This document shows positions 12,001 through 15,000 of a DNA stretch of 18,526 nucleotides, piece after piece. The DNA is from a virus (taxonomy: Duplodnaviria; Heunggongvirae; Uroviricota; Caudoviricetes). The position numbers were made by a program. The stretch lies in the IMG/VR virus record IMGVR_UViG_2695420863_000007. One strand, 5' to 3'. How positions within the stretch are numbered: position 1 is the stretch's first letter; each line of letters begins with the position of its first letter.

Positions 12001-15000
12001 TTCTTCCCTGGTAGCAAACCGGTAATACACCGTTCGCCAGACCTTACCTTCGATAACCAGAAGACCTGCCCGTGCCATTTTAGCTGCGGCCTGATTTATG
12101 CTGGTTACTGTTGCGCCTGTTAGCGCGGCAACGTCCGGCGCACAGAAGCTATTATGCGTCCCCAGGTAATGAATAATTGCCTCTTTGCCCGTCATACACT
12201 TGCTCCTTTCAGTCCGAACTTAGCTTTAATTTCTGCGATCTTCGCCAGCGCCTGAACACGATTTAGAGGTCTGCCGCCCATGACAGGAAGTTGTTTTACT
12301 GGTTCAGGTATCGTCTCACCACGGTTAATTCGCGCTGTCATACAGGTCAGTTCATCGGCAGCCTTGCGTCGTAATTCCGCGTCAGTCAGCGCATTGGCCC
12401 GCATGTTCTGGTACAGGTTGGTAACCAGCCAGTAGTGCGCGTTCGATTTCCACGGATAAGACTCTGCATCCGGATACAGGCCTCGCTTCCGGCAATACTC
12501 GTAAACCATATCAACCAGCTCGCTGACGTTTGGCAGTCCGGCGATAACGGATGCTTCTTCCCGGCACCATGCAACAAACTGCCCGGGTGATGGAAGAAAT
12601 GGTCGATTCTGCCGACGGGCTACGCGCATTCCTGCGTTAACCTGTTCCATCGAGGTGATCCCGTTTTCCCGGAAAGCCAGAACCCACTGGCGGCGGATTT
12701 CATTCAGTTCGTTCTGGTCCCGGTTAGCCAGACTCGCCGGGAAAGTTGCCAGTAACTGGCTGAACACACCGTTGATGATCTGCGCTACCTGTTGTACCTG
12801 CGGCTTTTCGTCGTACTGTTCCGGCATGTTGTTGGTGATCCGACGCATCTGCTCACGGTCAAAGTTAACCATCTGTGCGGCGATGTTTTTCATAAATCCA
12901 CCCCGTAAATCCAGTCAGTGTTTGTCAGGTCGAGTTTTGGTTTTCCAGCTGTCACGCCAGCCTGTTGCTTGTTACGGTTGATTTCGAGTTGGGTCCACTT
13001 GTCGCGGAGTTTGGCCGGACTTAGCACGTTACCGGACCAGAAGTTGTCCTGGCATGCCCAGCGGAACAGCACGCACATGTCGCGGTGGTTACGTCCGTCA
13101 CGTTCACGCATCAGGCGGATATCGTTAGCCCACCCTGCAAAATTCGGTTTTCTGGCTGATGGTGCGATGGTCTTCACCATGTCAAACATCCACTCTGCGG
13201 CGGTCAGGTCTTCTGCTGTTCCCCACTTGCTGCCGCTCTGAATTGCAGCATCCGGTTTAACCACAGAAAGATCGTTTTCTGGCTGGTCAGAGGATTCGCC
13301 AGAATTCTCGGACGAATAATCTTTTCTTTTTTCTTTTGTAATAGTGTCTTTTGTGTCCCCCTGTTTTGAGGGATAGCAATCCCCTAATTTGAGGGATGTT
13401 TTATCCCTCGTTTTAGGGGATTTTCCCTCGTTTTGAGGGATGTCCCTCATTTTAGGGGAACCTCCCTCGTTTTGAGGGATGCACCATTCTGAGATGTTTT
13501 TATTTGGTCCAAACATGCCGCCTTGCTGCTTGATAATATTCATTCTGACGAGTTCTAACTTGGCTTCATTGCACCGTTTGACAGGTAACTTTGTAATCTC
13601 GCTAAGTTGAGAATCGGTGATTCTGTCCATTGGTTTATTCCACCCATAGGTTTTACGCAGAATGGCAAGCAGCACTTTAAACTGTCGCTTGGTCAGATCT
13701 GCGCCTGAATAAGCCTCAATCAGCATATTTGATAGTCTGGCGTAACCATCATCGAGATCTGCCACATTACGCTCCTGTTCGGCAAAGTTACCTCTGCCGA
13801 AGTTGAGTATTTTTGCTGTATTTGTCATAATGACTCCTGTGGATTGATCCAGTAATGACCTCAGAATTCCATCTGGATTTGTTCAGAACGCTCGGTCTTG
13901 CACACCGGGCGTTTTTTATTGGTGAGTTCATCAAGCGCATACTTAAAAGCCCTGCTAATCGGACTGATGTCTGATGCCATTCCGAAAGCACACAAGACCG
14001 AAGCAATAAATCTCCAGTCCGTTCTGCTTATCTTCGATTCATGACAGCCAATCATCTTTGCCAGACCGCGCTGGGTAAGCGTTGACAGGTTGATAAGTAA
14101 ATCTGTTTCTGCGCGATCAACGTCGCGCTGTGATAGTTTGCTGTAACTTGTTTGTTCCATTTCTTAAGATTTCCAATAGTGAATAGTTAGTTGAAAGGTA
14201 TGCGTGGAAACGCATATGGCCTTAGTTGGTCAGATATCTTGGGACTCGCTTTTCAGCGACGTAGGACGAATGTCCGTTGTTACAAAGAGCGGGTACTGCT
14301 TAGGCGGCTTTGTTACTGGATGGAGGGAAAACATCATCCAAAGAACATTGGCACCCTAACTTCCTGAGGCCTTCTACGATCTTTCGGCAATCGTTAAGTC
14401 TAGGAGTACGGATATTCAGCTCATAGTTGGCGATGCGGGATTGCCCCCAACCAATTGCCGAAGCCAGTACAGCTTGCGAAACTCCGATTTTTTTTCGCTG
14501 CTGGGCAATTTTGTTCATTGCGGTCTCCCTAGTATTAATCACACACCCATTACACACAATTTGTGATTAACGGTCAACCTCAATTCGTGTACAGAGTTCA
14601 ATCACGTTGCGTGTTACATTTAAAGGATGAAAACGATGCATGAAATTATCGGGGAAAGGATCAAGTCCCTTAGAGAAGCTAAAGGACTTAGCCAGGCTCA
14701 ATTGGCCAAGCTTTGCGGCTGGGCTGCGCCTTCACGCCTGGGGAACTACGAGTTAGGAACAAGAAAGGTTAGCGCGGATGACGCGCTGGTTCTTGGGGCG
14801 GCACTCGGCGTATCTCCGGCAAAAATAATGTTTGGCGAGGATTCAGACGCTGTATTTCGCCAATATGAGTACCCGTTATTTTCTTCAGTGCAGGCCGGGC
14901 CGTTTTCGGAGGTTGGAAGCTACACAGCAAGCGATGCAAAGGCATGGGTCCCAACGACCACAAAAGCCAGCGAAAAAGCTTTCTGGCTTGAGGTGAAAGG

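Follow-up and report, generated by a model that had tools for sequence, protein, structure and literature searches.

The stretch of DNA analysed here (18,526 nucleotides, to which we will refer as "the window") contains the early-to-late segment of a lambdoid prophage in minus orientation, ordered as gam-kil-cIII ... cI / cro-cII-O-P-ren-nin-ant-Q-esterase-lysis. Two genes make up the core of its replication module: O, whose product contains the Pfam domain Phage_rep_O (PF04492; residues 22-115, E=1e-35), and P, whose product contains Phage_lambda_P (PF06992; E=2e-61). The features that characterize a lambda-type origin are all recognizable in this region, namely iterons located inside O, an AT-rich tract next to them, and a gene for a Phage_rep_O initiator followed by another for a P-type loader (Table 1).

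Table 1. Genes and origin elements of the replication module, in window coordinates; iteron positions were mapped from the GenBank annotation of phage 933W (AF125520).
Feature	Position	Strand	Remarks
Gene P, helicase loader	12192-12893	-	Replication-module partner of O; overlaps the O stop codon
Gene O, replication initiator (312 aa)	12890-13828	-	Contains the origin; assigned by ORF, Pfam and 933W identity
AT-rich unwinding region of the origin	13300-13356	-	After the iterons in the sense of O
Iteron 6	13357-13374	-	Equals lambda ITN4; adjoins the AT-rich region
Iteron 5	13380-13397	-	Equals lambda ITN3 but for one base (G to A)
Iteron 4	13404-13421	-	Equals lambda ITN2
Iteron 3	13424-13441	-	Equals lambda ITN1
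Iteron 2 (1' in Kozlowska 2020)	13443-13460	-	Second extra unit, TTCCCCTAAAATGAGGGA; no lambda equivalent
Iteron 1 (933W numbering)	13463-13480	-	Outermost, promoter-proximal; extra with respect to lambda; sequence identical to lambda ITN1
39-bp segment absent from lambda (13 codons)	13443-13481	-	Defined by alignment and by the tandem pair

Six iteron units lie within the O gene at 13357-13480, in agreement with a preliminary description of this DNA that had placed six repeats inside O at 13356-13480. The degenerate pattern CCCYNNWTTTRRGGG has six matches across the whole 18.5-kb window, every one of them within 13358-13478, against a chance expectation of 0.01 matches; a repeat search recovered a 17-nt unit family that corresponds to the same six units, together with a 39-nt tandem pair (13404-13442 and 13443-13481) of 90% identity. 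The units are inverted repeats in their own right (TCCCTC...GAGGGA). As a trivial consequence, the array folds strongly when single-stranded (-36 kcal/mol, z = -9), and a cruciform or hairpin was accordingly discarded as independent evidence. Beside the array, the GC content reaches its neighbourhood minimum (0.30) at 13300-13349, and a single base distinguishes the AT-rich region from that of lambda.

The lambda record (NC_001416) annotates exactly four iterons (ITN1-4, at 39034-39118), just as the preliminary description had stated. The alignment of both origins, which it had proposed as a check, did not return equal iteron numbers: a single in-frame gap of 39 bp appears in lambda, equivalent to two iterons and 13 codons, and the other four units are common to both, matching ITN1-4 as had been claimed except for one base in ITN3. 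The same single-base difference between iteron 5 and ITN3 has been reported in PMC7466680. The two additional units had been described as lying upstream, which is right in the direction of O transcription and corresponds to higher coordinates on the + strand of the window; the 39-bp segment thus occupies the promoter-proximal side of the array, away from the AT-rich region. Its placement is ambiguous within 13424-13481, because 19 bp (CATCCCTCAAAACGAGGGA) are present at both of its ends, and the BLAST break point of all the four-iteron relatives falls at 13442/13443. This gap ambiguity is also discussed in PMC7466680, where footprinting led to the promoter-proximal two being taken as the "extra" units. 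Overall, the lambda origin shares with that of the window its location inside O, the AT-rich tract, the O-P module and four iterons bar one base, and differs in being devoid of the two-iteron segment and in the O protein that it encodes.

The O protein of lambda has 299 aa, and 296 of the 312 residues of the window O are identical to it (95%), with one 13-residue gap and the substitutions G17E, L37I and S282G (BLASTP). The difference in length, regarded from the beginning as consistent with two extra iterons, is accounted for exactly by the 39-bp (13-residue) gap. It had also been proposed that the expansion alters the linker region of O, and this holds as well: the 13 extra residues (IPQNEGGSPKMRD, beside IPQNEGKSPKTRD) begin right after the Pfam DNA-binding domain, within a segment (residues 116-195) in which 81% of the positions are polar, charged, Pro or Gly, versus 58-59% in the flanking domains. 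Domain boundary and composition are therefore consistent with an insert situated in the inter-domain linker. A single-sequence AlphaFold2 model of O, built without an alignment, was too poor to judge disorder of the insert (mean pLDDT 42.7), and the absence of predicted secondary structure at residues 106-204 of that same model is a weak hint only. No solved structure related to O was found by a sequence search of the PDB.

By megablast against phage records, the O gene is 100% identical over its 939 bases to that of phage 933W (AF125520 / NC_000924), and the same O is found in more than 25 other Stx-phage records, including Stx2 phage I, PA28, AU5Stx1 and many Stx1a phages. The AF125520 record contains six misc_binding features ("protein O, ori iteron 1-6") at exactly the positions occupied by the units of the window; this GenBank record is the basis for dating the six-iteron annotation to 1999. 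G17E, L37I and S282G are, in turn, exactly the list of substitutions given for 933W O in PMC7466680, which places the window protein in the 933W subtype. Six iterons, a 312-aa O and adjacent P and ren genes are shared with 933W and with other Stx phages (P27, Stx2 phage I, VT1-Sakai, AU5Stx1). Nothing within O/ori differs from 933W, the two being identical base for base, in contrast to cI, a 708-bp gene in 933W and a 215-aa ORF in the window. We are thus highly confident that the array constitutes the 933W/Stx-phage variant of a lambda-type origin, carried inside the O gene of a lambdoid prophage and bearing, relative to lambda, a 39-bp tandem duplication; no observation speaks against this identification. 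This six-iteron origin is already known, as it had been annotated and experimentally characterized before, and its observation here is a rediscovery; the result for the window is confirmatory, its replication module being of 933W type. When induced Stx prophages replicate, the dosage of stx genes rises and with it the yield of toxin, for which reason the differences between Stx-phage origins and that of lambda are medically relevant, and this relevance explains why the six-iteron form had already been studied.

The prophage as a whole is a different mosaic from 933W, into which a 933W-type replication module has been fitted, since no phage record covers more than 62% of the window and no complete E. 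coli genome more than 68%. In Stx phages, the interval from Q to a SASA/nanS-p-type esterase gene houses tRNA genes and stxAB. Such an esterase gene is present in the window (2473-4323, minus strand), and neither an ORF of stx size nor tRNA genes were found between it and the Q region (window 4324-5860), so that the cargo of a Stx-converting phage is not seen at this place. To judge from its gene content, the prophage combines a Stx-phage-like architecture and the 933W replication module, without toxin genes in the window; carriage by a Stx phage does not form part of the definition of the six-iteron origin itself. Several minor elements were also recognized by Rfam. C4 antisense RNA (10029-10113), its a1/b1 target (10175-10227) and isrK (10140-10214) lie on the minus strand, and an ORF downstream of them (8727-9401, minus strand) aligns with a gene of the E110019 relative named "phage antirepressor Ant"; this C4/isrK/ant-like segment can be read as an antirepressor control module of the P1/P7 immI-like kind within the nin region of the prophage. 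A match to sRNA-Xcc1 (9441-9524, minus strand; 75.7 bits, gathering score 53) is situated between the ant-like and ninE-like genes, and the identity of the cIII-kil-gam end, in the early left operon, is confirmed by the lambda cIII thermoregulator (RF01804; 18051-18109, plus strand; 88.5 bits).

Counting iterons in related prophages, the second check that had been suggested, returned two states only. Among 89 full-length close relatives (viral and genome contigs), 50 have four iterons and an O of 299 aa and 39 have six iterons and an O of 312 aa, intermediate iteron states being absent from this set. Residues E17, I37 and G282 tend to go together with six iterons, and mixed combinations occur with both states among the surveyed relatives, a pattern consistent with exchange of modules. 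Using a specific query of 70 nt, the six-iteron junction was found in 364 of 5,426 complete E. coli genomes (~6.7%), with up to four copies per genome. The lambda-type junction was found in ~1,085 records at an identity of at least 95%, a count that is only approximate because six-iteron arrays match the four-iteron query too (93.8% over 64 nt).

Regarding the polarity of the change, four iterons spaced much as in lambda are present in every one of the more distant O genes sampled (51-78% protein identity; Leclercia, Pseudescherichia, Izhakiella, Siccibacter and Pantoea eucrina), and for this reason parsimony indicates that four is probably the ancestral number, six having derived from it by an in-frame tandem duplication of 39 bp. 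The opposite course, with six as the older state and the four of lambda arising by deletion between the identical 19-bp direct repeats of iterons 1 and 3, would be easy in molecular terms, as these perfect repeats are 39 bp apart, and a natural iteron-to-iteron deletion is documented in E. coli E110019 (67 bp, iteron 3 to iteron 6); furthermore, the two 39-bp copies diverge at 4 of 39 positions, exceeding the flanking lambda/933W divergence. We nonetheless consider it unlikely, given the uniform presence of four lambda-spaced units in the sampled distant genes and the confinement of the 1' variant to six-iteron loci: among the 122 loci surveyed, no four-iteron origin contains it as a possible donor. 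Duplication from four to six is thus the preferred reading, although a simple and recent duplication is an incomplete story, as the four substitutions between the two copies cluster in ~20 bp and the 1' variant has no four-iteron counterpart.

The pathway described for lambda may be carried over to the origin of the window by sequence identity, all of its sequence components being intact. Dimers of O would bind the inverted-repeat iterons to form an O-some, which would bend the DNA and destabilise the adjacent AT-rich tract, with unwinding taking place in supercoiled DNA; P would then deliver the host DnaB helicase, and transcription from pR through the region would activate the origin. On this basis, we infer that the prophage would replicate from this origin, with O binding its iterons. 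The 39-bp in-frame tandem duplication of the first two iterons would have provided two auxiliary sites, weakly bound by O, at the AT-distal edge and, by the same event, an inter-domain linker 13 residues longer.

The experimental background comes mostly from the Stx phages. Their six iterons were first compared with the four of lambda by Nejman et al. (2009), according to the account given in PMC7466680, and the O proteins of P27 and 933W have been described as 13 residues longer (Kozlowska 2020, PMC7466680). In that work, every O protein binds each single iteron, that of lambda more tightly than those of Stx phages, and the 933W protein, identical to the one encoded in the window, binds Stx-type six-iteron templates by EMSA and DMS footprinting. 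Mutation of iterons 1 and/or 1' with the O protein unchanged abolished transformation by a P27-derived plasmid, and the authors proposed that the extra sites raise the local concentration of O or stabilise the O-some (PMC7466680). Similar roles can be inferred for the extra sites of the window. Nevertheless, the role of the additional pair is less settled than its identification, the two units being barely footprinted in vitro and the plasmid test having been carried out in P27, another phage.

It could alternatively be argued that the extra repeats are neutral as DNA sites, any six-iteron phenotype deriving from the longer linker, which would act as a spacer loosening the O-some, or there being no phenotype at all. 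On the six-iteron template, strong protection is limited to the four AT-proximal iterons, the outer two being weakly footprinted in vitro, and the same authors have put forward the 13 additional residues as a "space barrier" giving a looser packing of the O-some (PMC7466680). Three iterons suffice for growth of lambda (Moore et al., 1981, as cited in PMC7466680), and both the four- and the six-iteron states are common in nature. Against neutrality, the six-iteron array is well conserved over 39 loci, and we regard this possibility as quite improbable. As for a chance pattern or an assembly artefact, it can practically be discarded, as six matches were reached by none of 200 dinucleotide-preserving shuffles and the very same array recurs in dozens of independent phage records, in 39 viral contigs and in 364 complete genomes.

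Arrays of initiator sites beside an AT-rich unwinding element are also found in the iteron-regulated origins of plasmids such as R6K, P1, pSC101 and RK2, in which the copy number of the repeats varies among relatives. Plasmid iterons are usually intergenic, and handcuffing provides them with an additional means of copy-number control. The array of the window differs from them in being coding sequence, so that only in-frame changes survive, and a handcuffing role is not attributed to it. As a tentative and rather doubtful idea, expansion from four to six at the AT-distal edge might be both recurrent and selected, iteron number then serving as an evolvable means of tuning how stringent initiation is, within the limits set by the O reading frame. 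The idea draws on the second lineage and on the contraction to three units in E. coli E110019 that are described below.

What is new in the present analysis is descriptive only, and comprises the frequency of the six-iteron form in complete E. coli genomes, the restriction to states of four and six, the probable ancestry of four, and a parallel case in a second lineage. The latter is a distant O/ori lineage in which Trabulsiella guamensis has four iteron-like units (locus L121, 560-780) and Pantoea stewartii six (locus L123, 560-820), so that the four-or-six dimorphism is repeated there. A single indel of 57 bp, which keeps the frame and falls at the AT-distal edge of the array, distinguishes the two. 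In the distant O genes with 51-78% protein identity (loci L099, L102, L103, L110, L111 and L116), the equivalent of window 13322-13442, which comprises four iterons and the start of the AT tract, shows 86-91% DNA identity to the window, and BLASTN aligns nothing else of these genes; the origin is thus better conserved than the O coding sequence that surrounds it.

The O gene of E. coli E110019 (NZ_CP035751; locus L125, 12838-13709), the complete E. coli genome that best covers the window (68%), is annotated as "frameshifted". A deletion of 67 bp (window 13375-13441) brings the beginning of iteron 3 up against iteron 6, leaving three iterons and a broken reading frame; judging by its junction, this gene comes from a six-iteron origin that was shortened in nature by deletion between iterons. 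Strain E2865 has the same junction. A BLAST search with this junction, tried as a means of counting three-iteron pseudogenes, was abandoned, since separate pieces of intact arrays get joined and intact arrays match as well; E110019 and E2865 are the only secure cases.

Lambda-like four-iteron O genes were also found in assemblies of Shewanella, Pseudomonas, Neobacillus, Oceanobacillus, Bradyrhizobium and Leeuwenhoekiella (loci L083-L098 and others), several of them in contigs of ~48.4-48.5 kb and some with low coverage. Their presence in such unrelated taxa looks like contamination of public assemblies with lambda DNA, derived from control or spike-in material or from cloning vectors.
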